Assembly: GCA_049115735.1 (NCBI GenBank)
Contig: JAGDZP010000009.1
Coordinates: 36,355-100,354 of the forward strand
From: Cyclobacteriaceae bacterium
GTDB lineage: Bacteria; Bacteroidota; Bacteroidia; Cytophagales; Cyclobacteriaceae
Length of the DNA: 64,000 nt
Direction of reading: 5' to 3'
This document shows, in pieces, positions 5,781-47,172 of the stretch (positions within the stretch are counted from its first letter, which is position 1; each line of letters opens with the position of its first letter). The position numbers and the translations under genes are program-made. The notes below the pieces were generated by a model. The model did not search any database. It was given only the letters and a program-made list of their open reading frames with translations, and was not told the origin of the DNA.

Positions 5781-6875
5781 ATGAAAATTGGTTTAATAAA
5801 ATGCACAGAAGAGAATCTGGTAGCCTTGGTGCCTAAGGTTGTATCCAGATTAGTAAGTGATGGATATGATGTTTATTTTGAAACAGGTGCTTCCGATGAA
5901 TCCAACTATTCTGACGAAGAATATGTTTCTGCTGGAGCCAAATCTGCGGACAGAGAGGACATCATTGTATCATCTGATATTCTAATTACAGTTGCCGGCT
6001 TGTCAGATGCTGATATTTCCAAAATAAAACCTGAGACTTTCGTCGTGGGTAAATTTGGTTTTACCCAAGGACTTATACAAACGTTAGAAGACCATAAAAT
6101 AAAGGCATTCAGCCTGGAAAGACTTCCTCGAAGCTCAATTGCTCAATCGATGGATGTGCTGTCCTCGTTGGCTTCACTATCCGGTTACAAAGCGGTGCTT
6201 CTATCTGCAGACAATTTTGGTGGTTACTTTCCTATGATGACTACCTCGGCCGGAACTATACCGCCGGCAAAGATTTTGATAATTGGTGCTGGTGTAGCTG
6301 GATTGCAAGCGATAGCCACGGCAAGGCGTTTGGGTGCAGTGGTAGAAGCATTTGATGTGCGATCATCTGTTAAAGAGCAAGTTGAAAGCCTTGGAGCGAA
6401 GTTCATAGAGGTAGCAGGTAGCACTGAAGACGCTGGAGCAGGAGGGTATGCAGTTGAGCAAACAGAAGATTACATTGCTAAGCAAAAAGAATTGATTCAT
6501 CAAAGTTGCATTAAAGCTGATGCAGTAATAACAACGGCAGCCATTCCAGGTAAAAAAGCGCCTGTTTTAGTTGAAAAGAGGACTGTGCAAGCCATGAATG
6601 CGGGAAGCGTAATTGTCGATCTTGCTGCGGCTACCGGGGGCAACTGTGAACTAACAGAAAATGACGAAATGATCAACGTCGAAGGGGTTAAAATCATCGG
6701 TGACTCCAGATTATACAACAGCATGAGTAAACAGGCCAGCCTGGTATTCAGTAATAATGTTTATAGCTTCCTAAAATTTGTATTTAAGGACGGTTTAGAA
6801 GCTATTCCTTATGATAATGAAATAGTGTCAAAGACATTAATTTCTGAACGAAAAGAGAGAACCGTTTCCGCTTAA
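5781..6875 (+). CDS. pntA: NAD(P) transhydrogenase subunit alpha part 1 (PntAA)
   Basis: MKIGLIKCTEENLVALVP..., IIGAGVAGLQAIATARRLGA Rossmann motif and alanine-dehydrogenase/PNT fold. I prefer the internal ATG at 5781 to the ORF-track start at 5670, because the upstream 37 codons overlap the terminator. Confidence 0.8.
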   Translation: MKIGLIKCTEENLVALVPKVVSRLVSDGYDVYFETGASDESNYSDEEYVSAGAKSADREDIIVSSDILITVAGLSDADISKIKPETFVVGKFGFTQGLIQTLEDHKIKAFSLERLPRSSIAQSMDVLSSLASLSGYKAVLLSADNFGGYFPMMTTSAGTIPPAKILIIGAGVAGLQAIATARRLGAVVEAFDVRSSVKEQVESLGAKFIEVAGSTEDAGAGGYAVEQTEDYIAKQKELIHQSCIKADAVITTAAIPGKKAPVLVEKRTVQAMNAGSVIVDLAAATGGNCELTENDEMINVEGVKIIGDSRLYNSMSKQASLVFSNNVYSFLKFVFKDGLEAIPYDNEIVSKTLISERKERTVSA

Positions 6876-31172: not shown

Positions 31173-32828
31173 TTATTTAGTCCCCTTCCTGGGAGTCGCT
31201 CTTTTGCCAGTAGGTGTTGCGCGGACAGGTTTCTGAATTTTCGCGGCTTCTTTCTCTTCAGGTTTGGCTTCCGCAGCTTTCACTTCTTTAGCATCCTCAA
31301 TATTCAGATCGCCATTCACATTCATGCTACCAAGGTAGTCTGGTAGGTCAATTCCAACCTGCTTGGCCAAGTCGTGGATAGGAGGTAGAGCACTAATAAA
31401 GTTTCGGATAAAAGATGAAGTGGCATTTTGTCCTTCTCCATTTCCACCTGAACCACCATCCCATACAGTGATTTTGTCGATCTTCAAGTTAGACAATGCT
31501 TCAGTTTGTCTACTCACTAAGGTATCAAGCTGCTCCAGCAAGAGTAGGGTAGAGGCAGCTTTGCTGTCGCCATCACAAGCATTGATAATCTCCTTGTATC
31601 CTGCGGCTTTTGAGTTTAGCAGTTCTTCCATACCCTTAGCTTCTGCCTGGTATTTCAAGAGTGTTGAATCAGCCTCACCTCTGGCAATGTTGATCAGCTC
31701 TGCTGCTTTGGCTTCTGCGTCAATGGTGACCTTCTGCTTATCAATTTTCTTCTGAACAATCTCCTCCTTTTCCAGGCGAGTTTGCTCTGCCAACTTCTCT
31801 GCTTCAAGAATCTGTTTCATGGCTTCAGCTTTGGCAACATCGCTTCTTCGTTTGGCTTCAGCCACTCTTTCTGCCAGTTCAGCATTCGATGTAGCTTCAG
31901 TAGCTTTGGATTCGTTTTCTCCGGTAATGGCTTCTGCTTCCAGTGTAGCCACTTTTACCCTTTGTTCTGTATCCGCTTCTTTTCTACCCTCGGTCGCACG
32001 AGCATTCTCCAAGGCTATTTGAACTTCTCTTTCTCTTCCTGCTTTTGCTTCACCCAGGCTCGCTTCAGTTTCATAGTTGGCAATGGTTACCCTTTTCTTA
32101 GCATCAGCTTCTTTTACTCCTTCTTCACTTTGTGCCTGTTCTATAGCCACTTTTACATCTTTTTCTCGCATTGCCCTGGCCTCACCTGTGGCACCTGAAG
32201 CTTCCTGATCAGCCACTTCTACTTTCGCCTTGTTGATTGCTTCTGCAGCGGCTTTCTTACCGATAGCTTCGATGTAACCGGACTCATCCGTGATATCTTT
32301 GATATTCACGTTTATCAGTTCCAGGCCAACTTTATTCAACTCAGAAGCTACGTGTTTGTTAATGAGCTGTAGGAATTGCTCACGGTCTTTGTTGATCTCT
32401 TCTATTGATAGCGTGGCAATTACTAACCTTAGCTGACCGATGATGATGTCTGTTGCCTGCGTTTCTATTTCATCCTGATCCAGACCAAGTAGCCTTTCTG
32501 CAGCATTGAGCATGATGCCTTCGGCTGTTGATATACCTACAGTAAAAGTACTTGGTGTGTTGATTCTGATATTTTGCTTGGATAGAGCTCCTTTCAGGTC
32601 TATATCTATCGGTATTGGTTTCAGGTCCAGGTATTCATATTCCTGAATAATGGGTATGATCAAAGCACCACCACCGTGCACACATCGTGCACTTTGCGAG
32701 CCACCAACTTTACCATAGATCACAAGCACTTGGTTTGAAGGACACCTTTTGTACCTGGCGATTATTATAATTAAGAGGAGTAAAAATAGGCCTATGCCTA
32801 CAAAAGTCATATTTGATAAAAATTCCAT
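31173..32828 (-). CDS. Flotillin-like SPFH/band-7 protein (YqiK-type) with a long A/E/K-rich coiled-coil
   Basis: N-terminal TM, then SPFH core, then extended EA-repeat coiled coil. 551 aa, as E. coli YqiK. Confidence 0.8.
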   Translation of the reverse strand: MEFLSNMTFVGIGLFLLLLIIIIARYKRCPSNQVLVIYGKVGGSQSARCVHGGGALIIPIIQEYEYLDLKPIPIDIDLKGALSKQNIRINTPSTFTVGISTAEGIMLNAAERLLGLDQDEIETQATDIIIGQLRLVIATLSIEEINKDREQFLQLINKHVASELNKVGLELINVNIKDITDESGYIEAIGKKAAAEAINKAKVEVADQEASGATGEARAMREKDVKVAIEQAQSEEGVKEADAKKRVTIANYETEASLGEAKAGREREVQIALENARATEGRKEADTEQRVKVATLEAEAITGENESKATEATSNAELAERVAEAKRRSDVAKAEAMKQILEAEKLAEQTRLEKEEIVQKKIDKQKVTIDAEAKAAELINIARGEADSTLLKYQAEAKGMEELLNSKAAGYKEIINACDGDSKAASTLLLLEQLDTLVSRQTEALSNLKIDKITVWDGGSGGNGEGQNATSSFIRNFISALPPIHDLAKQVGIDLPDYLGSMNVNGDLNIEDAKEVKAAEAKPEEKEAAKIQKPVRATPTGKRATPRKGTK

Positions 32829-32830
32829 AA

Positions 32831-33352
32831 TTATTGAGTTTTATAAGGTTCAACAAATAATACATTGCCCTGCACATCATACACAAGTATTTCAGTGCCG
32901 GTTTCTATTTTGTCCTGATTGGTTTTAGCGTGAAATGTTTTCAGTCGGCCTTGCACAACCAACTGCACCTGGCCACTTCCTTCTCCATTCCCTGGAATAC
33001 CGAGGTATACCTTTCCTGTTTTTCCTACTGCGTTATTGATATCTATATTTCCTTTTTCATTGAGTCCCTTAAGTTTTTTCATCATCAGGATTGATCCGAC
33101 AAAAGCCAATGAACCCATGAAAATAGCAACCATTAGAATTTTAAATTCTGACATATCAGTGGTTGTGTGACCAAAGTATCCAGCCCAACCTCCAATGCAA
33201 ACAAATGCTATCAGGGAGTTGAAGGAAAAATCACCTCCAAACAATTCGATTTCAAAATGGTCGACATCCAGTCCAATAAAGGTGAGCAACACCACCAGAC
33301 CCAAAAAGCCGCTGGAATAGATTGCGATGTTCCAATATATATCTACAGTCAT
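32831..33352 (-). CDS. NfeD-like membrane protein (YqiJ-type) with a C-terminal OB-fold
   Basis: N-terminal TMs plus GKTGKVYLGIPGNGEGSGQVQLVVQGRLKTFHA OB-like segment. Immediately upstream of flotillin in the same orientation. Confidence 0.6.
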   Translation of the reverse strand: MTVDIYWNIAIYSSGFLGLVVLLTFIGLDVDHFEIELFGGDFSFNSLIAFVCIGGWAGYFGHTTTDMSEFKILMVAIFMGSLAFVGSILMMKKLKGLNEKGNIDINNAVGKTGKVYLGIPGNGEGSGQVQLVVQGRLKTFHAKTNQDKIETGTEILVYDVQGNVLFVEPYKTQ

Positions 33353-33509: not shown

Positions 33510-35057
33510 TCAGTAAAACTCCCATTTGCCACGTAAATAGTATTTATACAAAACCGGATTGTGTATCTTATTTACTTCGATGTTTACAGTATCCTCCGCA
33601 AACAACGGTTTACCAAAGGATGTCATCAGTGTCATCGATTCATGGTTGATCCATCTTGTTCTTATTGTGGTTTCATCAAAGCGGAGACTTTGAAGAGCCT
33701 TTTCTAATTTCTCTGGATCTCCATTTTTTGCACCCAATACCCAGCCCCATTCTCCAAGCGTAATCACTTGGTTGTGCATGGGTGCTGTTGTAAATCCAGC
33801 CTCCTGCATAGTCAGGTTTATGCAATTAAATGCTTTGGCGGCATAATATGGGCTACCAGCCTGGGTCACCACCAATCCATGTGGTCTAAGTCGTTTGTGG
33901 CAAAGTCTATAAAATTCATAAGAATAGAGCCTGCCCATTTCTACTGTCTTTGGATCGGGTAAGTCAATGATAATTACATCATAGAAGCCAGCATCACTTT
34001 CCAGGAAATTGTAACCATCGGTGTTGATAATGTTCAGTTTCTCATGATTCATAGAATTCTGATTCATGGTTACTAACAAATCATGTGTCTTACCAAGGTC
34101 TGTCATCACAGGATCAAGATCGACCAATGTGATAGTTTCGACTGATTGGTATTTCAGAATTTCTCTTACCGCTCCACCATCTCCGCCACCAAGTATTAAT
34201 ACCTCTTTTGGTAGTTTAGATAGGCTCATTGCTGGATGAACCAGGGGCTCATGATACATATACTCATCAATAGAGCTTAGCTGTTGATTGCCATTGATGA
34301 ATAACCAAAAGTCTTCTTTGGACTGAGTGATAACTACTTTCTGGTATTTGCTCTGCTCTTCGAAAACCACATTGTCTTTATACCTTTTTTCTTCCCCATA
34401 GCTTATGATAGGTTGGGCAAATAGGAAGCCTGAAACCAGTAGTACAAATACCCCAAAGGAGAGGAGGTTTGTTCTCATCCTTGCTGTAGACTCCAGATTC
34501 GATTTTAGAATGAAGTACAATAAAATCGCCACGCTGAAATTAATGCTTCCTAGAATAACAGGAGTATAAGTCAGACCTAAGTAGGGAAGACCAATGAAGG
34601 CAAAGAATACACCACCAATCAAACTGCCGTAGTAGTCATTCTCCATCACAGATGAAACGTTGATGTGCAGCTTCTCAAACTGGTCGTTCAACCTAATTAC
34701 GATTGGGATTTCCATACCAATCAAAAGGCCGATGATGATGCTAAGCGAATAGATGATCCAATAGGAGCCCCCATAGTAAGCCGTCACTGAATAGGTGATC
34801 ACCGATACGTAGGCAGTTAGAATCGACAGGGTAAATTCAATCAGAATGAACTTCTGAAGCAGGTCGCCCGAAAAGTATTTACTAATGCGACTTCCGAGCC
34901 CCATGGAAAAAAGCATGATCGATACGATCATAGTCCATTGGAAAACAGAGTCGCCAAGAAAATAGGTAGCAAGTGTGGACAAAACGTATTCGGCAACAAT
35001 TCCTGACAAGCCTGTAGCGAACAGCGCGAGTTTCAGAATGTTGGAATGTAGTTTCAT
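33510..35057 (-). CDS. Polytopic membrane domain fused to a spermidine/spermine synthase-like aminopropyltransferase domain
   Basis: About 200-aa N-terminal multi-TM region, then LILGGGDGGAVREIL and DLPDP motifs of spermidine synthase. Confidence 0.7.
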   Translation of the reverse strand: MKLHSNILKLALFATGLSGIVAEYVLSTLATYFLGDSVFQWTMIVSIMLFSMGLGSRISKYFSGDLLQKFILIEFTLSILTAYVSVITYSVTAYYGGSYWIIYSLSIIIGLLIGMEIPIVIRLNDQFEKLHINVSSVMENDYYGSLIGGVFFAFIGLPYLGLTYTPVILGSINFSVAILLYFILKSNLESTARMRTNLLSFGVFVLLVSGFLFAQPIISYGEEKRYKDNVVFEEQSKYQKVVITQSKEDFWLFINGNQQLSSIDEYMYHEPLVHPAMSLSKLPKEVLILGGGDGGAVREILKYQSVETITLVDLDPVMTDLGKTHDLLVTMNQNSMNHEKLNIINTDGYNFLESDAGFYDVIIIDLPDPKTVEMGRLYSYEFYRLCHKRLRPHGLVVTQAGSPYYAAKAFNCINLTMQEAGFTTAPMHNQVITLGEWGWVLGAKNGDPEKLEKALQSLRFDETTIRTRWINHESMTLMTSFGKPLFAEDTVNIEVNKIHNPVLYKYYLRGKWEFY

Positions 35058-35062
35058 CTTTC

Positions 35063-35755
35063 TTAGGAGCTTGTTGTTACTGTAGCCGATACCGTTGCTG
35101 CTGTCACCGCTGCAGATATTGCTACCTGCACTTCCTGAATCGTTTGATCAACAGATTCGGCTATTGGATTTTCTTTTATAAATAATTTGAGCGCTTTCTT
35201 GATTTCTCTTTTTTCCTTTCTGTCATTGCTTAAAATCCCTTGTCCACCACTTGAATAGATCAAAGACAATAAGACAGCTTCATCCGGAGAACTGTTTTGT
35301 CCTTTCAGTACAATCTCTCTTAGCCTTTGGATCAGTTCATTACGTTCGGATTTTTCCTTCAAGCGGCAGATCTTATATGGGATGAACAAGAACTTCTTGT
35401 GTTCGATGCTGAAGTAGCCATCTTTTTCCATTCTATAGAGAATGACCCACTTAAAGGTCTTGACTTTGCGCGAAACCTTGCTGATCCACTGGGTGATTTT
35501 GCGTTTCTTCTTTGAGTTTTTGATAAGGTTAAATACCTCATAATCCAATGGTTGTTTCAGTTGATTGATTTCGCCAGCCTGGTCATTTACCAAAAGGTAT
35601 TTTCCATCTATTTTCAGCAAACCACGCAAATTCATACCGAGCAATATGGCCCCAACTATCCCATAGGGCAGGATCATATCGGATATCATCCATCGACCCT
35701 TCTCAGGATGCTGAGCCAGTAGCAAATATTTCTCTATGGTGTTTAATGTTCTCAA
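35063..35755 (-). CDS. GPP34/GOLPH3-like protein
   Basis: N-terminal LLLAQHPEKGR resembles the GPP34 LLLA...EKGR signature. About 230 aa. Confidence 0.35.
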   Translation of the reverse strand: MRTLNTIEKYLLLAQHPEKGRWMISDMILPYGIVGAILLGMNLRGLLKIDGKYLLVNDQAGEINQLKQPLDYEVFNLIKNSKKKRKITQWISKVSRKVKTFKWVILYRMEKDGYFSIEHKKFLFIPYKICRLKEKSERNELIQRLREIVLKGQNSSPDEAVLLSLIYSSGGQGILSNDRKEKREIKKALKLFIKENPIAESVDQTIQEVQVAISAAVTAATVSATVTTSS

Positions 35756-35763
35756 AATAATTT

Positions 35764-36627
35764 TTATAGTAACCAGGTAATCAATACAGATCCACCTATA
35801 TATGCAAATGCTTCAACCAATGCCGCTCCATTGTTTGGATGCTCCTGGTTGACCAGCTCATCAGTCAGGTTCTGCCCAGGGAGCAAGATCTTATCAGCTA
35901 GAAATCTCACTATCGGTAAGAAGACGAGCCCTATTCCTACGTCCAAGGCCACACCCTCCAGGGTGATCAGCCAGTCTTCAAAATCGTGCATGAGTGCAAA
36001 GCGAATGAGATTACCTATCGCTATTAATGCACCGGCAAACCCAATGCCCACTGCAATATTTCCCTTTTTTATATGTTCATGAATATCGTAGGGCGTGATG
36101 AGATTGTAAACCAATGATGTCACGTACATTAGGGCCTGTCCCAAGATCCAATAGAGCACAGCGGTAATTATGGGGCCTCCGGCACCATGGCCTTCGCCAT
36201 GAATGGCACCAAGCACAATTAGCCCAGTCGAAACTGCCATAGCACCTTCCACCACTCCGGTACCCACATTGCGGTCTTCTACTATTTCCTTCTTCACATC
36301 AAACTTTCTCAATATTAATTTGTCATTAATGAGAATGGATAGGTTTAATAGAAGAATTGAAAGTGCGCCGTAAATTCCGATATCTATTAGGTCTTGAACC
36401 AGCCCAGCGGACTCACCGAGTAGTGCACTGCCAATAGCAGCAAGTAACCCAATGAAATATCCAACATAGGCAATTGAAAAAGCAAAGTTGTCGTGTTCAA
36501 CCAGTTCATAATTCACTTTTACCCCGGGGTGGAACCATTGGTACACCGTTTTGCCAATGAAAAATAAAAGGAATGAAACCGCCAGGTATACCAGTGTTTC
36601 AAGTATGTCGTCAAATAATGGTAACAT
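35764..36627 (-). CDS. Polytopic integral membrane protein, possibly DUF350/YjfL-like (internal repeats)
   Basis: Seven or more hydrophobic helices and an internal duplication. The family assignment is tentative. Confidence 0.35.
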   Translation of the reverse strand: MLPLFDDILETLVYLAVSFLLFFIGKTVYQWFHPGVKVNYELVEHDNFAFSIAYVGYFIGLLAAIGSALLGESAGLVQDLIDIGIYGALSILLLNLSILINDKLILRKFDVKKEIVEDRNVGTGVVEGAMAVSTGLIVLGAIHGEGHGAGGPIITAVLYWILGQALMYVTSLVYNLITPYDIHEHIKKGNIAVGIGFAGALIAIGNLIRFALMHDFEDWLITLEGVALDVGIGLVFLPIVRFLADKILLPGQNLTDELVNQEHPNNGAALVEAFAYIGGSVLITWLL

Positions 36628-36656
36628 GTATTATAGGTTTAGATGTTGGTTTTAGT

Positions 36657-37409
36657 TTATTTTCCGAATCCCCCGCCTCTTGATCGAGAACTAGAGCTTC
36701 CCCACCTTGAGCTTGAGCTTGTGGTTTTTTTGCTTGTGGACGACTGAGAAGTTCTATTCGCAACTCGCTGTTTAAAACTCGATGTATTTCTGCCCCATCT
36801 GGAGTTCGGTCGTGTGCTGCTTGTGTATTTACTATTGGTGCCGTATGTCGATCTTCCACCTGTAGATGGTCCATAGTAAGAGCGACCAGTACCATAGTAG
36901 TTGCCACGATAGTCGTCATAGTACGACCTCCTAACAGGGTAGGTAGCCATTCTAAACATGCTGCTCATAAAGGCATATTGACCATAAAACGCCCAGAAGC
37001 TGTGTCCGCCGGAATTTTGCCAATGTCCGTACCTGGAGTTGCCAACATAATTGTTGTAGCCGGGAGGGCTGGCAGACTTATGGAGCTTTCCATCTTCACC
37101 ACGCGAGGCGATTTCCATGCCCATATTATTTGCGTGTTGATTGAAGAAATGTTCATCCACTTCAAACCAGCCTGTCTCTTCTTCTGTGGGCTTGCCAGCC
37201 TCCTTCTCTTCTACGATGACGTATTGGTGGGTATAGGTTTTAAAGAAACTCCCTTCCACGTTCATGTCATTCAGTATTATGGAGAACACCCGATCTCTTG
37301 GGATCTCTTTTACCAGAATGTCCACTGGGTTTTTTACAAATCTATTGCCGCCACAGCCTGCTAGCAGCGTCAGTATTAATAATCCTATTATGCCTTTGTA
37401 AGCTTTCAT
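36657..37409 (-). CDS. Lipoprotein with a long Tyr/Gly/Ser/Arg-rich low-complexity C-terminal tail
   Basis: Lipobox LLAGCGG after an internal Met (start taken at 37409). The C-terminal approx. 90 aa are YYG/RGG/SSS-rich and ungapped. Confidence 0.5.
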   Translation of the reverse strand: MKAYKGIIGLLILTLLAGCGGNRFVKNPVDILVKEIPRDRVFSIILNDMNVEGSFFKTYTHQYVIVEEKEAGKPTEEETGWFEVDEHFFNQHANNMGMEIASRGEDGKLHKSASPPGYNNYVGNSRYGHWQNSGGHSFWAFYGQYAFMSSMFRMATYPVRRSYYDDYRGNYYGTGRSYYGPSTGGRSTYGTNSKYTSSTRPNSRWGRNTSSFKQRVANRTSQSSTSKKTTSSSSRWGSSSSRSRGGGFGK

Positions 37410-37658
37410 TGATGTCTTTTTCTTGGTTAGTTTAATTTCTTCTATTTTTCTTACTGTTTTTATCAATTATTAGGAGCAATTACTCCGGTACTCTTAGTCA
37501 CTCTCCTCCGGCCTTCACTACTCGTCCCGATTTCATCGGGGACTCAGACATGCCGTTCAGTCCGGGCTAATGAGTAGCTTTTTTGTGTTTCCAGCAGTGA
37601 TTCTTTACTTCGTTTAGATTGACAATGACAGAGCGAACCTTGTCATCCTGATCCTACA

Positions 37659-38213
37659 TTACTCCTGTGCCGCTGGAATAATATTCGAAATCTCAAACTC
37701 TTTGATCACTTTCCCTACAGATGCTTCAAACTCTCTTTCTCCCCATTGTGTGATGGACAATATTTTCTTTTCGTCATCATCGTAGTAGTCCCAGCTGATG
37801 AATTCCTCCCAATCGCCTGTGCCTTTTGTATTGTTGTTGAAGTAGCCAGCCAGATCTGTGTCGAGATAATAGATCACTTCTTTGTATTCGATCTTTTTTG
37901 GAGGACGTTCTTTCTTTATCGTCTTTTCGATTATGTCCTCTCCAAGCTTGCGCATTTTCACCGACTTGCTTACTGAGAGCGAAAGCCCTCCTTCATTTTC
38001 TACGCTTAGGTACAACTCTTCGTCTCCAGAGTCAATCAAGTATTCTTTTGAGAAATTATTGTTGCCCCAATCATACTCATAGACCTCCTTCACCTGCCAT
38101 GATTTCATATCATAGTCCAATATAAAACCCTGATCTAAATCTTCCACCGTTACATGAGTGATGTCGTATTCCGGTTCCGTTTCTTTCTTTTTTAAAAAAT
38201 CAAATAAGCCCAT
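37659..38213 (-). CDS. Acidic cytoplasmic protein, DUF4178-like
   Basis: 184 aa, very acidic, with W/Y-rich repeats. The assignment rests on composition and the known PspA neighbourhood, not on a motif match. Confidence 0.3.
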   Translation of the reverse strand: MGLFDFLKKKETEPEYDITHVTVEDLDQGFILDYDMKSWQVKEVYEYDWGNNNFSKEYLIDSGDEELYLSVENEGGLSLSVSKSVKMRKLGEDIIEKTIKKERPPKKIEYKEVIYYLDTDLAGYFNNNTKGTGDWEEFISWDYYDDDEKKILSITQWGEREFEASVGKVIKEFEISNIIPAAQE

Positions 38214-38367
38214 ATTTACTTTTTAATTTCCTCTAATCTCTGAGAGGCCTCAATATTAATATTTTCCGTACTATTCTCTGTGTTCCTCTGTTTCGTATAG
38301 CCACTTACTTCATGGGCGTTTATCATCAATCCGAAGAATAAGACCAGCGATATAAAGTGTCCTTTTT

Positions 38368-38514
38368 TCAACTGCCGAATACTCTTTGGAAAAGGTACAA
38401 GCCTGCAATAATGATCAGGAATATAATTCCTATTTTTACCAGGATACCAAAAACGAATCCTGCCAAAAAAAGGACTGCCGCTACTACCAACAATATTTTA
38501 ATCAAGTCAAACAT
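38368..38514 (-). CDS. Unannotated 48-aa two-TM peptide between PspA and the DUF4178-like gene
   Basis: Minus-strand ATG at 38514. Translation MFDLIKILLVVAAVLFLAGFVFGILVKIGIIFLIIIAGLYLFQRVFGS, with stop at 38368-38370. It is below the ORF-track length cutoff. Confidence 0.35.
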   Translation of the reverse strand: MFDLIKILLVVAAVLFLAGFVFGILVKIGIIFLIIIAGLYLFQRVFGS

Positions 38515-38591
38515 CTTATTGATCTACTTTGTTTTCGAAGGTGCCGGCCACCGAATGGCGGTCGGCATTTCTGATTTATGATTATCCCCTT

Positions 38592-39302
38592 TTATTTATC
38601 TAATCCTAGTTTGGCTTTCATAGCAGCCAGGTCATCAGCCGCTTTTACTTCTGCAGTGCCACCTTCTAGTGCTTTTTCGATTTCATCGTCCACACTTTTG
38701 CTCTCGTTGGCTATTTCGCCATAAGACTCTGCCAACGCTTCTTCCTGCGCAACTTTGTCCTTCATCTTTTCGAGCATAGCCACAGTTCCGGAAGCATCTA
38801 CTTGCGAAAGTTGCTTATTAAGATTTTTTGTTGCGGTACTCACTTTTACGCGAGCTTTTAGCGTCTTTAATTCGTTCTCATATTGGCTGATGGTGCTGCG
38901 AATTTTCTTCACATTTACATCTAGTTGAGATACGTTCTTGTCAAATCTTTCCTGCTCTTCTTTTGCACGATTCATTTGGCCATTGGCTTCTTCTTTTTTC
39001 ACTAGCGCCTCACTTGCCAATCGATCTGCTTCTGCTGCATCTATTTGACCGTCCGCACCTCTTTTTAATAGGAGCATGGCTTTGTTTTCATAGTCTTTGG
39101 CTTTGCTCTTATAGGTCTCCACATCGTTTTTAGATCGGATAGCCATTGCTTTTACTTCTGCCAACGCGTGTAGGCTTTTATCCAAATCACTTTTTAAGTC
39201 TCTGATGCCTTGTTCGGTCATTTTAATTGGGTCTTCCAATTTGTCTATCGCAGCATGTGCTTCTGATTCACCGATTTTGAAAAGTCTTCTAAACATGTTC
39301 AT
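38592..39302 (-). CDS. pspA: PspA/IM30 family protein (phage shock protein A / Vipp1 / LiaH family)
   Basis: MFRRLFKIGESEAHAAIDKLEDPIKM aligns with the E. coli PspA [26 protein letters not shown]. Coiled-coil throughout, LAAMKAKLG C-terminus, 236 aa. Confidence 0.85.
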   Translation of the reverse strand: MNMFRRLFKIGESEAHAAIDKLEDPIKMTEQGIRDLKSDLDKSLHALAEVKAMAIRSKNDVETYKSKAKDYENKAMLLLKRGADGQIDAAEADRLASEALVKKEEANGQMNRAKEEQERFDKNVSQLDVNVKKIRSTISQYENELKTLKARVKVSTATKNLNKQLSQVDASGTVAMLEKMKDKVAQEEALAESYGEIANESKSVDDEIEKALEGGTAEVKAADDLAAMKAKLGLDK

Positions 39303-39314
39303 AATTTCTCTATT

Positions 39315-39710
39315 TTAATTTTTTGATAATTTTAAGATTTCTCCTGAATACTCACCAAGGAGCATGGCCAGGGAATTAAATGTTGCTTCGATCTCGTTAA
39401 GATCGAGATTTTCTAGTTCATGTGTATTTCTGAAAAGTACCTTGTCACCGGTTTCATCCAGTACAAAAGCGCCATGGATAATGTCCCTGCTCTTTTGCAT
39501 GAGTGCTTTGTAGGTTTCGGCATTCGGGTCTTTTAGTTCTACAATAAATTGCTCAATGATCAACAATGGATCAGCCACCACAAGGACCAGATTTTTTATT
39601 CCCTGAGCTTCGTTTTCGATTACTATTAATCCGTCTTCCTGATTTTCGTAAGTTTTGGAATATCCCAGGTCAAGCAAGTATTCGTTTACTTTCTGAAAGT
39701 AATTGTTCAT
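39315..39710 (-). CDS. Small cytoplasmic protein, possibly YjfI/DUF2170-like (YbjN-type fold) PspA partner
   Basis: 131 aa, directly upstream of pspA with a 12-nt gap. Assigned by position and size, by analogy to E. coli yjfI-yjfJ. Confidence 0.3.
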   Translation of the reverse strand: MNNYFQKVNEYLLDLGYSKTYENQEDGLIVIENEAQGIKNLVLVVADPLLIIEQFIVELKDPNAETYKALMQKSRDIIHGAFVLDETGDKVLFRNTHELENLDLNEIEATFNSLAMLLGEYSGEILKLSKN

Positions 39711-39877
39711 TTTAAAATAATTTTAGATGTGCAATTAAATTTTTGATGGGTCTGTATTTCAATCAAATTTAATTACTTATTAATAGGTTATTGAATCTTG
39801 ATTGTTAAAAGTTGGTTTAATTTCCTGGTGGTGCTCTGAATTTCATATTTGATTGTGTCATTTTGTTTTACCTGACT

Positions 39878-39893
39878 ATGTTTACGTAAACAT
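39878..39893. promoter_or_regulatory. Perfect 16-nt palindrome ATGTTTACGTAAACAT in the divergent intergenic region between the PspA operon and the XRE/S24 regulator; candidate operator
   Basis: Read directly. It lies about 170 bp from the yjfI-like start and about 200 bp from the regulator start. Confidence 0.45.
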
Positions 39894-40089
39894 AATGCAA
39901 ATAGTTTTAGAGTTGCAAAAAAAATTAGCAATTAATATTATTTCTCTTTCAATGCTCTATCTTTGAGGTGTTGATTCCCGTATCTAGTAAACCCTTAATT
40001 CAATACCTGAAGAAGTCAGAGATTTGAAATTAAACAAAATGACCAAAACCGCTTTAATCTTATATCAATAAGTCTTTTATCTGTTAGTT

Positions 40090-40878
40090 ATGTCTTTCGT
40101 AGGAAAAAATATAAAGAAGATTAGATCGCTCAAAAAGATCAGTCAGAGCGAATTTGCTAAGATTTTCAATCTTACCAGGGGTAGTATAGGAGCCTATGAG
40201 GAAGAGCGGGCTGAACCAAAAATTGACACAATAATTCAATTGGCTAATTATTTTGGCTTATCGATTGATGCCTTGATTAATAAGGAATTGACCATGAATG
40301 ACCTATACAGTCTGGATATGGTTAATGAAAAACTTAATGAAGCCCATCACTTCAAAAAAGAAACCAAGGCAACCTTTAGAAGAGGAGGAATTGGTTTGGT
40401 AAAAATTGACAATCAACTAGAGTATGTCGTTAATTTTAGCAACAAGGATTTCATCAATAAACTTCCTGGCATTGAATTTCCGGTGAACTTCAAAGGTATA
40501 GCTAGGGCTTTTGAACTGAATGGTAGTGAAATGGAATACCATCAAAATGGGTTACACCATGGTGATATACTTTTGTGTAGGCTCAGTGGTATTAAAGACA
40601 AAAAGCTAGAGAATGGAAAGGTGTATGTATTGGTAGGTGATGGACAGATCATCGTACGACGACTAAAGTCATTGGCAAAAAGCCAAATGACGTTTTCGAG
40701 TGACGATCCAAATTACGATGAATTAGAAATCCCTCACGAAAGCATAGTAGAAATGTGGGAGGTAAGGGGTGCATACAGCACATACCTAAATCCACCAAAG
40801 ATGATTGAAGAAAAGGTGATGTTACTGGAAATGCAGATGGCAGATTTTCAAAAGCAGTTGAAGGGGCTGTCCAAATAA
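40090..40878 (+). CDS. XRE-family HTH transcriptional regulator with a C-terminal S24 (LexA/CI-like) peptidase domain
   Basis: N-terminal ISQSEFAKIFNLTRGSIGAYEEERAEPKIDTIIQLANYFGLSIDAL is a canonical HTH_XRE. The C-terminus has NGSEM...GDILLC...GQIIVRRLK, which is S24-like. Confidence 0.7.
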   Translation: MSFVGKNIKKIRSLKKISQSEFAKIFNLTRGSIGAYEEERAEPKIDTIIQLANYFGLSIDALINKELTMNDLYSLDMVNEKLNEAHHFKKETKATFRRGGIGLVKIDNQLEYVVNFSNKDFINKLPGIEFPVNFKGIARAFELNGSEMEYHQNGLHHGDILLCRLSGIKDKKLENGKVYVLVGDGQIIVRRLKSLAKSQMTFSSDDPNYDELEIPHESIVEMWEVRGAYSTYLNPPKMIEEKVMLLEMQMADFQKQLKGLSK

Positions 40879-40879
40879 G

Positions 40880-41833
40880 TTACTCGGAATACACATTTTG
40901 TAACCAGGCAAAAAGCTCCATACTCCATGCCAGGGCTACATGCAATATTACTCCACCCCAGATCCTGTTCGTATAAAAAGCCAGGATGCCTATTAGGTAG
41001 CCACCAAATGCTGAGCTGATCGTTTCTGGCAGTGGCTTGCCAAAGTGCAAGAAAACATAACTGCCAACCATCGCAATCACGGCATGTCCTCCAAGCACCC
41101 TGGCAAAAGCTATGACTAAAAAACCTCTAAAAAATAGCTCAACGCTAATGTAGTAGGAGCCATATACCAGCTCATATACCAGAACTGATATGAGCTCGGG
41201 AATATCGTGAACATCAGCAAAGGCTGTTCCGCCAGAATGTTTATATCGAGGGTAGTAGGTGTTGAGCTCAGACAAGAAAGACGCTATTGCCATCCCACCG
41301 AAAACAAGAAGTACTAGTATTATGTATGGTTTAAAATCGAAGTGTTTGAGGGTGAGTCCATACCAATGTCTTTCCGTATCATTAGTCCTTTCATAGAAAT
41401 AATAAAATATCATTAGCGGCAGTACAGTAGCTATCAAGCTATCACCCCAGTTAATTGCTCTAAAAGCAAAAATGTAATCTACTCGTGGGAGCGTCCTAAG
41501 AAAGTCGTTGAAATAATAAAATTGACGATCAAAACTGATTATTGCGAATCCAACAATGAACTTGATCCAGTATTCTTTTGAATTTAGCCAGGTCTTCTGA
41601 ATTCCAAAAACATAAAGCAATCCGCAGGTCACGAGAAATGGAAATGACATGTGGAGAAACATAAAGAGCCATTTCAGCTCCGATCCATGATAGCTGTCCA
41701 GAATTGAGTCTTCAAAATCGTACTTGTAGTTGAAGTAAATACAGATGCCTAAGAAGACAGTTACACTCAAATAGAACTTCCAATGAAAGTGTTCTCTCAG
41801 ATATTTTTTGAGGTATTGGAGAATGGTGTTCAT
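40880..41833 (-). CDS. CPBP-family (CAAX/Abi) intramembrane metalloprotease
   Basis: Polytopic. Has SVELFFRGF (E-x3-R) and FLHFG/HVALAW histidine motifs in TM helices. Confidence 0.5.
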   Translation of the reverse strand: MNTILQYLKKYLREHFHWKFYLSVTVFLGICIYFNYKYDFEDSILDSYHGSELKWLFMFLHMSFPFLVTCGLLYVFGIQKTWLNSKEYWIKFIVGFAIISFDRQFYYFNDFLRTLPRVDYIFAFRAINWGDSLIATVLPLMIFYYFYERTNDTERHWYGLTLKHFDFKPYIILVLLVFGGMAIASFLSELNTYYPRYKHSGGTAFADVHDIPELISVLVYELVYGSYYISVELFFRGFLVIAFARVLGGHAVIAMVGSYVFLHFGKPLPETISSAFGGYLIGILAFYTNRIWGGVILHVALAWSMELFAWLQNVYSE

Positions 41834-46938: not shown

Positions 46939-47172
46939 TTAATGCTCGGGCATGATTATCCATAGGATGATGTAGACTAATAGGCCAGGAAAGGCTGCAC
47001 TAAAAATGGAGATCAGGATATAACCCAATCTTGTTAATGCAGGATCAAAACCGAAATAGTCTGCTATTCCTGCACAAACACCAGCTATTACCCTGTCGTT
47101 GGATCTTGTTAATTTTCTTGTCATGGTTTTCATTTTATCATATTTAAGTTTGACATTAACCTTAATGCCCAA
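46939..47172 (-). CDS. pspC: PspC-domain mini-protein (77 aa)
   Basis: LTRSNDRVIAGVCAGIADYFGFDPALTRLGYILISIF...LLVYIILWIIMPE is a near-consensus PspC domain. Confidence 0.85.
   Translation of the reverse strand: MGIKVNVKLKYDKMKTMTRKLTRSNDRVIAGVCAGIADYFGFDPALTRLGYILISIFSAAFPGLLVYIILWIIMPEH

Follow-up and report, generated by a model that had tools for sequence, protein, structure and literature searches.

How are the PspA genes of the Cytophagales controlled, and through which DNA element? The question is raised by a 64,000-nt stretch of a Cyclobacteriaceae bacterium (GCA_049115735.1, contig JAGDZP010000009.1, positions 36,355-100,354; hereafter the window), in which a regulator gene lies divergent from a cluster that starts with a gene for a CesT/Tir-like chaperone (cesT, also yjfI-like), followed by pspA. 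We consider it probable that the regulator, a catalytically dead paralogue of the non-canonical LexA of Bacteroidetes, is a dedicated local regulator of the divergent cesT-pspA genes, and that it most likely binds a conserved dyad at 39913-39931, not the palindrome to which a preliminary description of the locus had pointed. The genes concerned are the following.

40090-40878, plus strand: regulator coding sequence (CDS), 262 aa, with an XRE/CI-type helix-turn-helix (HTH) at about residues 5-66, a linker, an S24-like beta domain at about 100-230 and a C-terminal helix at 238-261
39315-39710, minus strand: CesT/Tir-like (YjfI-type) chaperone gene, first in the divergent cluster (Pfam CesT_Tir_1, 9e-48)
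38592-39302, minus strand: PspA/IM30 family gene (Pfam PspA_IM30, 5.7e-41)

Divergent pairing of the regulator with cesT-pspA

The evidence for a functional relationship is foremost one of gene order. We surveyed 80 loci, one genome per species, from Cyclobacteriaceae, Fulvivirga, Roseivirga, Reichenbachiella, Marinoscillum, Pontibacter, Rufibacter and Hymenobacter, with regulator identities of 38-75%. The regulator is divergent from cesT-pspA in 75 of the 80 loci, and from cesT and/or pspA in 78; the pairing ranges from Cyclobacteriaceae to Hymenobacteraceae and persists down to 38% regulator identity. Of the two exceptions, one lies at the edge of a contig, the second on a contig labelled Rickettsiales (L019, PBTY01000038.1) with many masked bases, probably mis-binned, which carries a Cytophagales-type regulator and dyad without cesT-pspA upstream. 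Regulator and cesT-pspA are arranged likewise in four closer relatives from metagenomes. On the downstream side of the regulator no conserved gene is found across the surveyed loci, and cesT-pspA is its sole conserved neighbour.

A functional link between the regulator and cesT-pspA is well supported by this comparison, since 78 of 80 Cytophagales genomes share the divergent arrangement; that the regulator is tied to the PspA cluster, as had been proposed, is very likely. Gene order of this kind, with the divergent pairing kept throughout an order and the opposite flank free of conserved genes, is the textbook mark of a local transcription factor that sits beside its target. Since the regulator adjoins the PspA genes across the whole bacterial order, it is probably their dedicated regulator.

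Origin and catalytic residues of the regulator

The domain content agrees with the XRE-HTH/S24 regulator described earlier: Pfam assigns HTH_19 (1.4e-12; also HTH_3) and, more weakly, Peptidase_S24 (4.1e-10, 39.8 bits), with cesT-pspA on the other strand. The AlphaFold model (pLDDT, predicted local distance difference test, 79.8) comprises a five-helix HTH, a disordered linker, the beta domain and a long C-terminal helix. Its closest structural matches are lambda CI (3bdn) and LexA, whose C-terminal domains are matched by Foldseek with TM (template modelling) scores of up to 0.74 (target-normalised), so that the S24 beta-domain fold is found by Pfam and Foldseek alike. The protein is 100% identical to one from a Cyclobacteriaceae metagenome-assembled genome (MAG), and its homologues in Cytophagales number in the hundreds. 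It is labelled 'LexA family transcriptional regulator' by NCBI; a search against NCBIfam returned no family above cutoff.

The 'non-canonical LexA' family of Bacteroidetes was described by Sanchez-Osuna et al. 2021 (PMC8565304), with a CTAA-N5-TTAG box validated by electrophoretic mobility shift assay. We took the C-terminal sequences of this family from Supplementary Data S5 of PMC8565304 and then recovered the full-length sequences. The C-terminal domain of the regulator matches the family member of Pontibacter actiniarum (WP_025606010.1) with a BLASTP E-value of 2e-12. Both have the motifs SD(N/D)PxY and E(I/M)WE as well as an extra C-terminal helix, and the HTH core GAYEEGRxEPK is near-identical between them. 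The regulator thus has the architecture of the family (XRE HTH, S24 fold, C-terminal helix) together with homology to its validated members, and shares with it a phylum-restricted distribution and an arm-N5-arm dyad at its own gene (CTCA-N5-TTAG here, CTAA-N5-TTAG there). An intact LexA and a member of the regulator family are found side by side in the genomes of H. gummosus (L031 and P0378), H. edaphi (L037 and P0377) and Hymenobacter sp. B81. By sequence, the regulator is clearly a paralogue of the non-canonical LexA and derived from that family. It differs in the replacement of Ala-Gly, Ser and Lys, in being a second copy beside an intact LexA, and in its partner, which is cesT-pspA and not the SOS genes (recA, umuDC, dinB). 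Neither PspA, the envelope nor an inactive LexA branch is mentioned in PMC8565304. With lambda CI and E. coli LexA the regulator shares the two-domain repressor fold, but it has neither the catalytic dyad nor the scissile bond, and RecA-dependent inactivation is not expected.

The replaced positions are encoded as follows.

40417-40422, plus strand: codons Leu110-Glu111, at the Ala-Gly scissile position (alignments with non-canonical LexA; the family has E, D or N at the Gly position)
40528-40530, plus strand: codon Glu147, where S24 proteins carry the nucleophile Ser (GDSM/GSEM alignment and profile alignment to E. coli LexA)
40657-40659, plus strand: codon Arg190, where S24 proteins carry the general-base Lys (alignment and family census)

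The locus had been suggested to encode a LexA/CI-like self-cleaving repressor, with the Ser of the S24 domain seen in the motif NGSEM and catalytic competence called uncertain. The alignments do not bear out self-cleavage by this Ser. At the scissile bond, KASAG/Y of the non-canonical LexA aligns with DNQLE/Y of the regulator, replacing Ala-Gly by Leu110-Glu111; the position is variable within the regulator family. At the nucleophile, GDSM of close homologues aligns with GSEM, replacing Ser by Glu147. The Ser of NGSEM is Ser146, one residue earlier, which varies in the family (A, P, T, D, N); the Met after Glu147 is invariant. At the general base, VFKR or TVKRL aligns with IVRR, replacing Lys by Arg190, in agreement with the earlier remark that VRRL stands in place of VKRL. 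The profile alignment to E. coli LexA likewise places Glu at S119 and Arg at K156. The regulator therefore lacks all three defining features of self-cleaving S24 repressors, namely the Ser nucleophile, the Lys base and the Ala-Gly (or Cys-Gly) bond, and with them the conserved autocleavage determinants of the non-canonical LexA. The loss extends to the whole family, for which 286 clusters at 50% identity match at E<=1e-30: the general-base position is R in 187, K in 16 and G in 24 of 268 sequences, the K never occurring together with Ser, and none of the 149 best cluster representatives (of the 286 clusters) combines Ser with Lys. Because all three determinants are replaced and the pair Ser plus Lys is absent from 149 family representatives, LexA-type self-cleavage of the regulator appears unlikely.

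DNA elements of the shared spacer

The spacer between the regulator gene and cesT (39711-40089) measures 379 bp with a GC content of 26.6%, compared to 40.5% for the whole window, as expected from the AT-rich region of some 380 bp reported before. Phylogenetic footprinting reveals three elements that recur at fixed spacing immediately upstream of the regulator gene. The features of the spacer are listed below.

39913-39931, plus strand: conserved dyad TTGCAAA-AAAAA-TTAGCAA, candidate operator (position weight matrix, PWM, and footprinting; window copy TTGCAAAAAAAATTAGCAA)
39881-39906, minus strand: AAC-N17-CGTAAA element directed toward cesT-pspA, putative promoter of the extracytoplasmic function (ECF) sigma type (-35 AAC, -10 CGT)
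39878-39893, no strand: perfect 16-nt palindrome ATGTTTACGTAAACAT (from the sequence)
39902-39909, plus strand: TAGTTTTA, a 7/8 match to the sigma-A -7 box TAnnTTTG, possible regulator promoter (from reading the sequence)
39764-39771, minus strand: TAAATTTG, a -7 box in full agreement with TAnnTTTG, some 55 nt before the cesT/yjfI-like gene starts
39943-40088, no strand: genome-specific insertion of about 146 bp between the promoter/dyad block and the regulator ATG (alignment with L001 and L004)

The dyad has the family consensus TTGCTCAAAAAATTAGCAA, that is TTGC(T/A)NA-N5-TTAGCAA, with a core CTCA-N5-TTAG/TGAG. The copy in the window has a PWM score of 22.1, the next best site in the 64 kb a score of 13.8. 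The dyad is the top PWM match in nearly every orthologous spacer, and only 5 matches with a score of at least 20 are found outside the spacers in 949 kb. In some clades the arms change such that symmetry is preserved (TTGCCAAT-N-ATTGGCAA; GCTCAAAgTTTGAGC in Hymenobacter). Compared to the CTAA-N5-TTAG or GGA-N5-TCC boxes of the non-canonical LexA, the box at the regulator's own promoter is a related but distinct dyad (CAAA-N5-TTAG in the window), and its core is one arm position off the Hymenobacter SOS box CTAAAAAAATTAG. Additional copies occur on the psp side: Hymenobacter has two dyads about 84 bp apart, GCTCAAAgTTTGAGC beside the regulator gene and GCTCAAAAAAGTAGC, and in two further loci, L027 and L030, a perfect dyad is added in the interval from cesT to pspA. 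Taken together, the dyad at 39913-39931 is most likely the best operator candidate, a variant of the validated CTAA-N5-TTAG box of the non-canonical LexA.

The paired Hymenobacter dyads (for example at 5881 and 5965 of L048) are eight helical turns apart and bracket a TTTACG...AAAGTT module, one of them overlapping a T-rich -7-like box upstream of cesT; the arrangement suggests DNA looping. In one clade of 13 loci (L010, L016, L018, L020, L022-L026, L032, L035, L057, L058) Leu takes the place of the canonical Met, and with an ATG further upstream the dyad falls within the first codons (MAQNISKK...); conservation of the DNA element thus does not depend on its being coding or non-coding. A dyad-like site TTGCTAATTATTTTGGC (sense strand) is also found at 40241-40259 within the regulator CDS, at the conserved IANYFG codons, and again at about 6152 in L014, L028, L039, L044, L067 and L073; this may reflect the coding sequence by coincidence, or the site may serve as an operator within the gene. 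The linker of the regulator CDS (codons SLKKVA) contains dyads of 22-26 bits in loci from Pontibacter, Rufibacter and a Roseivirgaceae MAG (L029:6259, L038:6259, L056:6279). Other dyad-like sites of the window (61688, 61879, 40243 and others) were rejected, as all are within CDSs. Two groups of phage-like, AT-rich metagenomic loci, mutually homologous within each group, carry the exact dyad consensus in an apparently non-coding position (L087, L120, L123, L124, L135, L138, L144, L146, L166 and L174; L105, L117, L130, L134, L147 and L151), where it may act as operator of related XRE repressors. We also note a direct repeat of 28 nt (39715-39742 and 39899-39926, 79% identical), through which a second AAATAnTTTTAGA..TGCAA block is placed exactly at the cesT start.

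The palindrome itself is present as described, and extends to 18 nt (TATGTTTACGTAAACATA, 39877-39894), the longest perfect palindrome of the window. Its rarity is a local one: a perfect palindrome of at least 16 nt arises somewhere in the window in about 80% of composition-preserving shuffles, and within the 379-bp spacer in 2.2%. The proposed check for further copies, run on the 64-kb window, returned no second exact copy of ATGTTTACGTAAACAT and a single match with 3 mismatches, which was rejected as a regulon site since it lies within the pntB CDS. Among relatives the palindrome is perfect in the window and L001 only, and one base off in L004. L081, L082 and L083 each have a single uncompensated change at an outer position; in L084 (67% identity) the site is lost and reads GATACGCTAAC, of which only ACG is kept. 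L003, L006 and some 70 further orthologous spacers lack it as well. The 12-nt core GTTTACGTAAAC persists in the window, L001, L081, L082, L083 and L004, and only its TACG is conserved throughout the family. The left half of the palindrome contains the conserved TTTACG (CGTAAA on the other strand), the right half falls into the spacer between the two boxes of the directional element. Because outer positions change singly and without compensation, and most spacers have no palindrome, its dyad symmetry appears to be under no detectable selection; the palindrome would be the CGTAAA box plus adjoining spacer, self-complementary by chance in this lineage. As a shared operator of regulator and psp cluster it is thus not sustained, a different dyad being conserved instead.

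A sub-lineage may nevertheless use two operators, the conserved dyad and the palindrome GTTTAC/GTAAAC, where the bound regulator would occlude the -10 box of the psp-directed promoter. The clade of the window indeed has a distinct recognition helix (LTRGSIGAYEE, compared to LARPSVGAYEE elsewhere) along with the kept palindrome core, and L005 retains the arms ATGTTT/AAACAT around an altered centre. But the half-site GTTTAC is unlike the dyad half-site TTGCTNA, the spacer beside CGTAAA shows moderate conservation in every clade and yet is not palindromic, and the changes observed are non-compensatory; we regard a second operator as unlikely.

The directional element AAC-N16/17-CGTAAA is found in 60 of 77 spacers (with a spacing of 17 in 43 and of 16 in 16), always toward cesT-pspA and never in the opposite orientation, and close relatives show no change in its ACG and GTT. 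ECF sigma factors recognize -35 and -10 boxes built around AAC and CGT, and pspA of B. subtilis is driven by sigma-W from a promoter TGAAAC-N16-CGTA. Boxes, spacing and orientation are those of an ECF promoter, and because of the AAC/CGT core and the likeness to the sigma-W promoter we read the element as a putative ECF-type envelope-stress promoter. Closer to cesT, the box TAAATTTG is likely a proximal housekeeping promoter of the psp cluster; CAAATTTA at this position is conserved in the clade of the window. TAnnTTTG is reportedly the consensus of the Bacteroidetes sigma-A -7 box (Bayley 2000; Chen 2007). A scan for sigma-70-type promoters and terminators gave chance-level results, the underlying model not being applicable to Bacteroidetes. 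In L082, a close relative, an ECF sigma gene follows 1.4 kb after the regulator gene (L082:3590-3801), with TTAGCAA...CGTAAA about 110 nt upstream of the sigma start and without a correctly spaced AAC.

Several points weigh against the dyad and the ECF-type promoter. The preference for the dyad over the palindrome draws on how well it is conserved and on its homology with a motif that has been validated. Its left arm is degenerate in the window (TTGCAAA), and its centre at about -48 of the putative psp-directed promoter indicates neither repression nor activation clearly. The insertion of about 146 bp separates it from the regulator ATG, which follows 12-14 nt after the dyad in L001 and L004 and after 4-18 nt in relatives. 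A terabase-scale metagenome scan with the 19-mer dyad consensus returned 94 matches, of which 2 (L114 and L172) are psp-type spacers and the rest unrelated, mostly coding chance contexts; it is uninformative on a regulon. The 64-kb window holds no second AAC-N17-CGTAAA site and only chance-level matches to AAC-N16/17-CGTA, and tblastn with E. coli RpoE, a probe of low sensitivity, yielded no gene for an ECF sigma factor, either in the window or in the loci. Finally, the boxes concerned also admit a reading as sigma-A promoter for the regulator gene, with TAGTTTTA as -7 box. A perfect TAGTTTTG takes this position in L001, the box overlaps the -35-like box of the other strand, and the AAAGTTTTAG box of the directional element is in turn similar to a -7 box of the Bacteroidetes type that would serve the regulator gene. 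As to the insertion, no other copy is found in the window or the loci, and a repeat or miniature inverted-repeat transposable element was rejected for this reason; it contains a possible new -7-like box (GAGATTTG, 40019-40026).

The sigma-A reading opens a further alternative, namely that the regulator controls only itself, or is a bona fide SOS regulator, the block being its own sigma-A promoter and operator and the adjacency to psp having no regulatory meaning. This accords with the dyad at the start of the regulator gene, with the fit of TAGTTTTA/TAGTTTTG to the -7 consensus and with the NCBI name of the protein. It leaves unexplained the order-wide pairing with nothing conserved on the other side, the extra psp-side dyads of Hymenobacter, L027 and L030, and the invariant CG of TTTACG, which a sigma-A -33 box does not account for; the same genomes moreover have a separate, catalytically intact non-canonical LexA. 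We therefore judge it quite improbable. The original proposal as a whole, a LexA/CI-like repressor that acts on itself and on the psp cluster via the palindrome and is removed by (RecA-stimulated) self-cleavage, has on its side the S24 fold and HTH, the local rarity of the palindrome (p about 0.02) and the core kept in five close relatives, but is very hard to maintain given the family-wide loss of the catalytic residues, the uncompensated changes, the absence of the palindrome from more than about 70 orthologous spacers and the distance of about 120 bp between its centre and the conserved psp -7 box.

Proposed mode of control and relation to known Psp systems

From the observed fold, paralogy, loss of catalytic determinants, synteny and conserved DNA elements with their geometry, we infer the DNA element bound, the direction of the effect, the type of sigma factor and the signal. 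A dimer of the regulator would bind TTGC(T/A)NA-N5-TTAGCAA at 39913-39931 and control the envelope-stress genes cesT-pspA, probably also the longer cluster through nfeD and the flotillin-like gene. Since the dyad lies on the start of the regulator gene in relatives, covering its start region, autorepression is suggested. On the other side the dyad abuts the -35-like box of AAC-N17-CGTAAA and may modulate psp transcription. Lambda CI, placed between divergent promoters, both represses and activates. For the regulator repression is favoured, because extra dyads occur downstream in Hymenobacter and before pspA in L027 and L030. Release from DNA would proceed without RecA-stimulated autocleavage, because Leu-Glu, Glu147 and Arg190 replace Ala-Gly, Ser and Lys. 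The S24-like domain may be retained as a dimerisation or signal-receiving module, and release may be brought about by a protein or membrane signal via this degenerate domain or the C-terminal helix. Such a signal could plausibly come from PspA or the CesT-like chaperone by partner switching, in analogy to PspA-PspF and PspA-ClgR.

The remaining genes of the divergent cluster are the following.

33510-38213, minus strand: DUF4178, an unassigned 269-aa open reading frame (ORF), DUF350 (YjfL-like), a GPP34-like gene and a membrane-fused spermine/spermidine-synthase-like gene (Pfam)
32831-33352, minus strand: NfeD-like gene, at the cluster end
31173-32828, minus strand: Band_7/flotillin-like gene, which closes the cluster

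The name 'PspA-flotillin cluster' is accurate for this gene content. The block from DUF4178 to the spermine-synthase-like gene is found in about 30 of the 80 loci. Given the gap of 378 bp between pspA and DUF4178 (38213-38592), the long cluster may comprise more than one transcription unit; within the gap lies a 51-aa ORF (38216-38371) with a signal-peptide-like N-terminus and no match in a Pfam search. About 6 kb off the cluster, a 77-aa PspC-domain protein is encoded (46939-47172, minus strand; Pfam 3.6e-24), upstream of which neither the dyad nor AAC-N17-CGTAAA is found, only chance-level matches to AAC-N16/17-CGTA. A gene for an Rce1/CPBP-like intramembrane protease (40880-41833, minus strand) is convergent with the regulator, stop to stop, and is kept only in L001 and L081-L084.

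Neighbourhoods of CesT/Tir, PspA, Band7 and spermine synthase (polyamine) have been described by Ravi et al. 2024 (PMC11237479), and the psp cluster matches this gene context. No S24 or XRE regulator is named for the CesT/Tir-PspA-Band7 context in the main text of PMC11237479, and S24 is mentioned in neither of two Psp comparative-genomics papers.

The control proposed here differs from that by PspF and sigma-54 or by LiaRS, as anticipated in the preliminary description. As in the PspF-pspABCDE system of Enterobacteria, the regulator gene is divergent from pspA with a common control region, and feedback by PspA is plausible. PspF, in contrast, is a sigma-54 AAA+ enhancer-binding protein, whereas the locus has neither an AAA+ domain nor a GG-N10-GC promoter. 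A sigma-54 promoter reading of the dyad was rejected, the GC...GC spacing being 2 nt too long and the spacer containing no TGGCAC-N5-TTGC. ClgR of Actinobacteria is likewise a Cro/CI-type HTH regulator linked to pspA, but it lacks an S24-like domain and shares a transcript with pspA. For the LiaRS-LiaIH and sigma-W-pspA systems of Firmicutes, the likeness is that of the sigma-W promoter to AAC-N17-CGTAAA, while the locus has neither a two-component system nor an ECF sigma gene linked to it.

A wider reading, which we put forward tentatively and hold to be less likely true than not, is that a LexA-derived pseudo-peptidase family (at least 150 clusters at 50% identity) was repurposed in Cytophagales as the missing Psp/IM30 regulator. 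The dead S24 domain and the C-terminal helix would sense membrane damage via PspA or the CesT-like chaperone, and the HTH specificity would have shifted from CTAA-N5-TTAG to CTCA-N5-T(T/G)AG.

No dedicated regulator of PspA/IM30 has been described for Bacteroidota, and the regulator is a concrete, testable candidate that comes with a candidate operator and promoter. A recently discovered family of SOS repressors that spawned a catalytically dead paralogue wired to envelope stress would be a clean case of a pseudo-enzyme, and regulator and non-canonical LexA would exemplify the divergence of operators after duplication. Caution is also called for in comparative studies, where proteins annotated as 'LexA family transcriptional regulator' may be counted as SOS regulators despite lacking every cleavage determinant.

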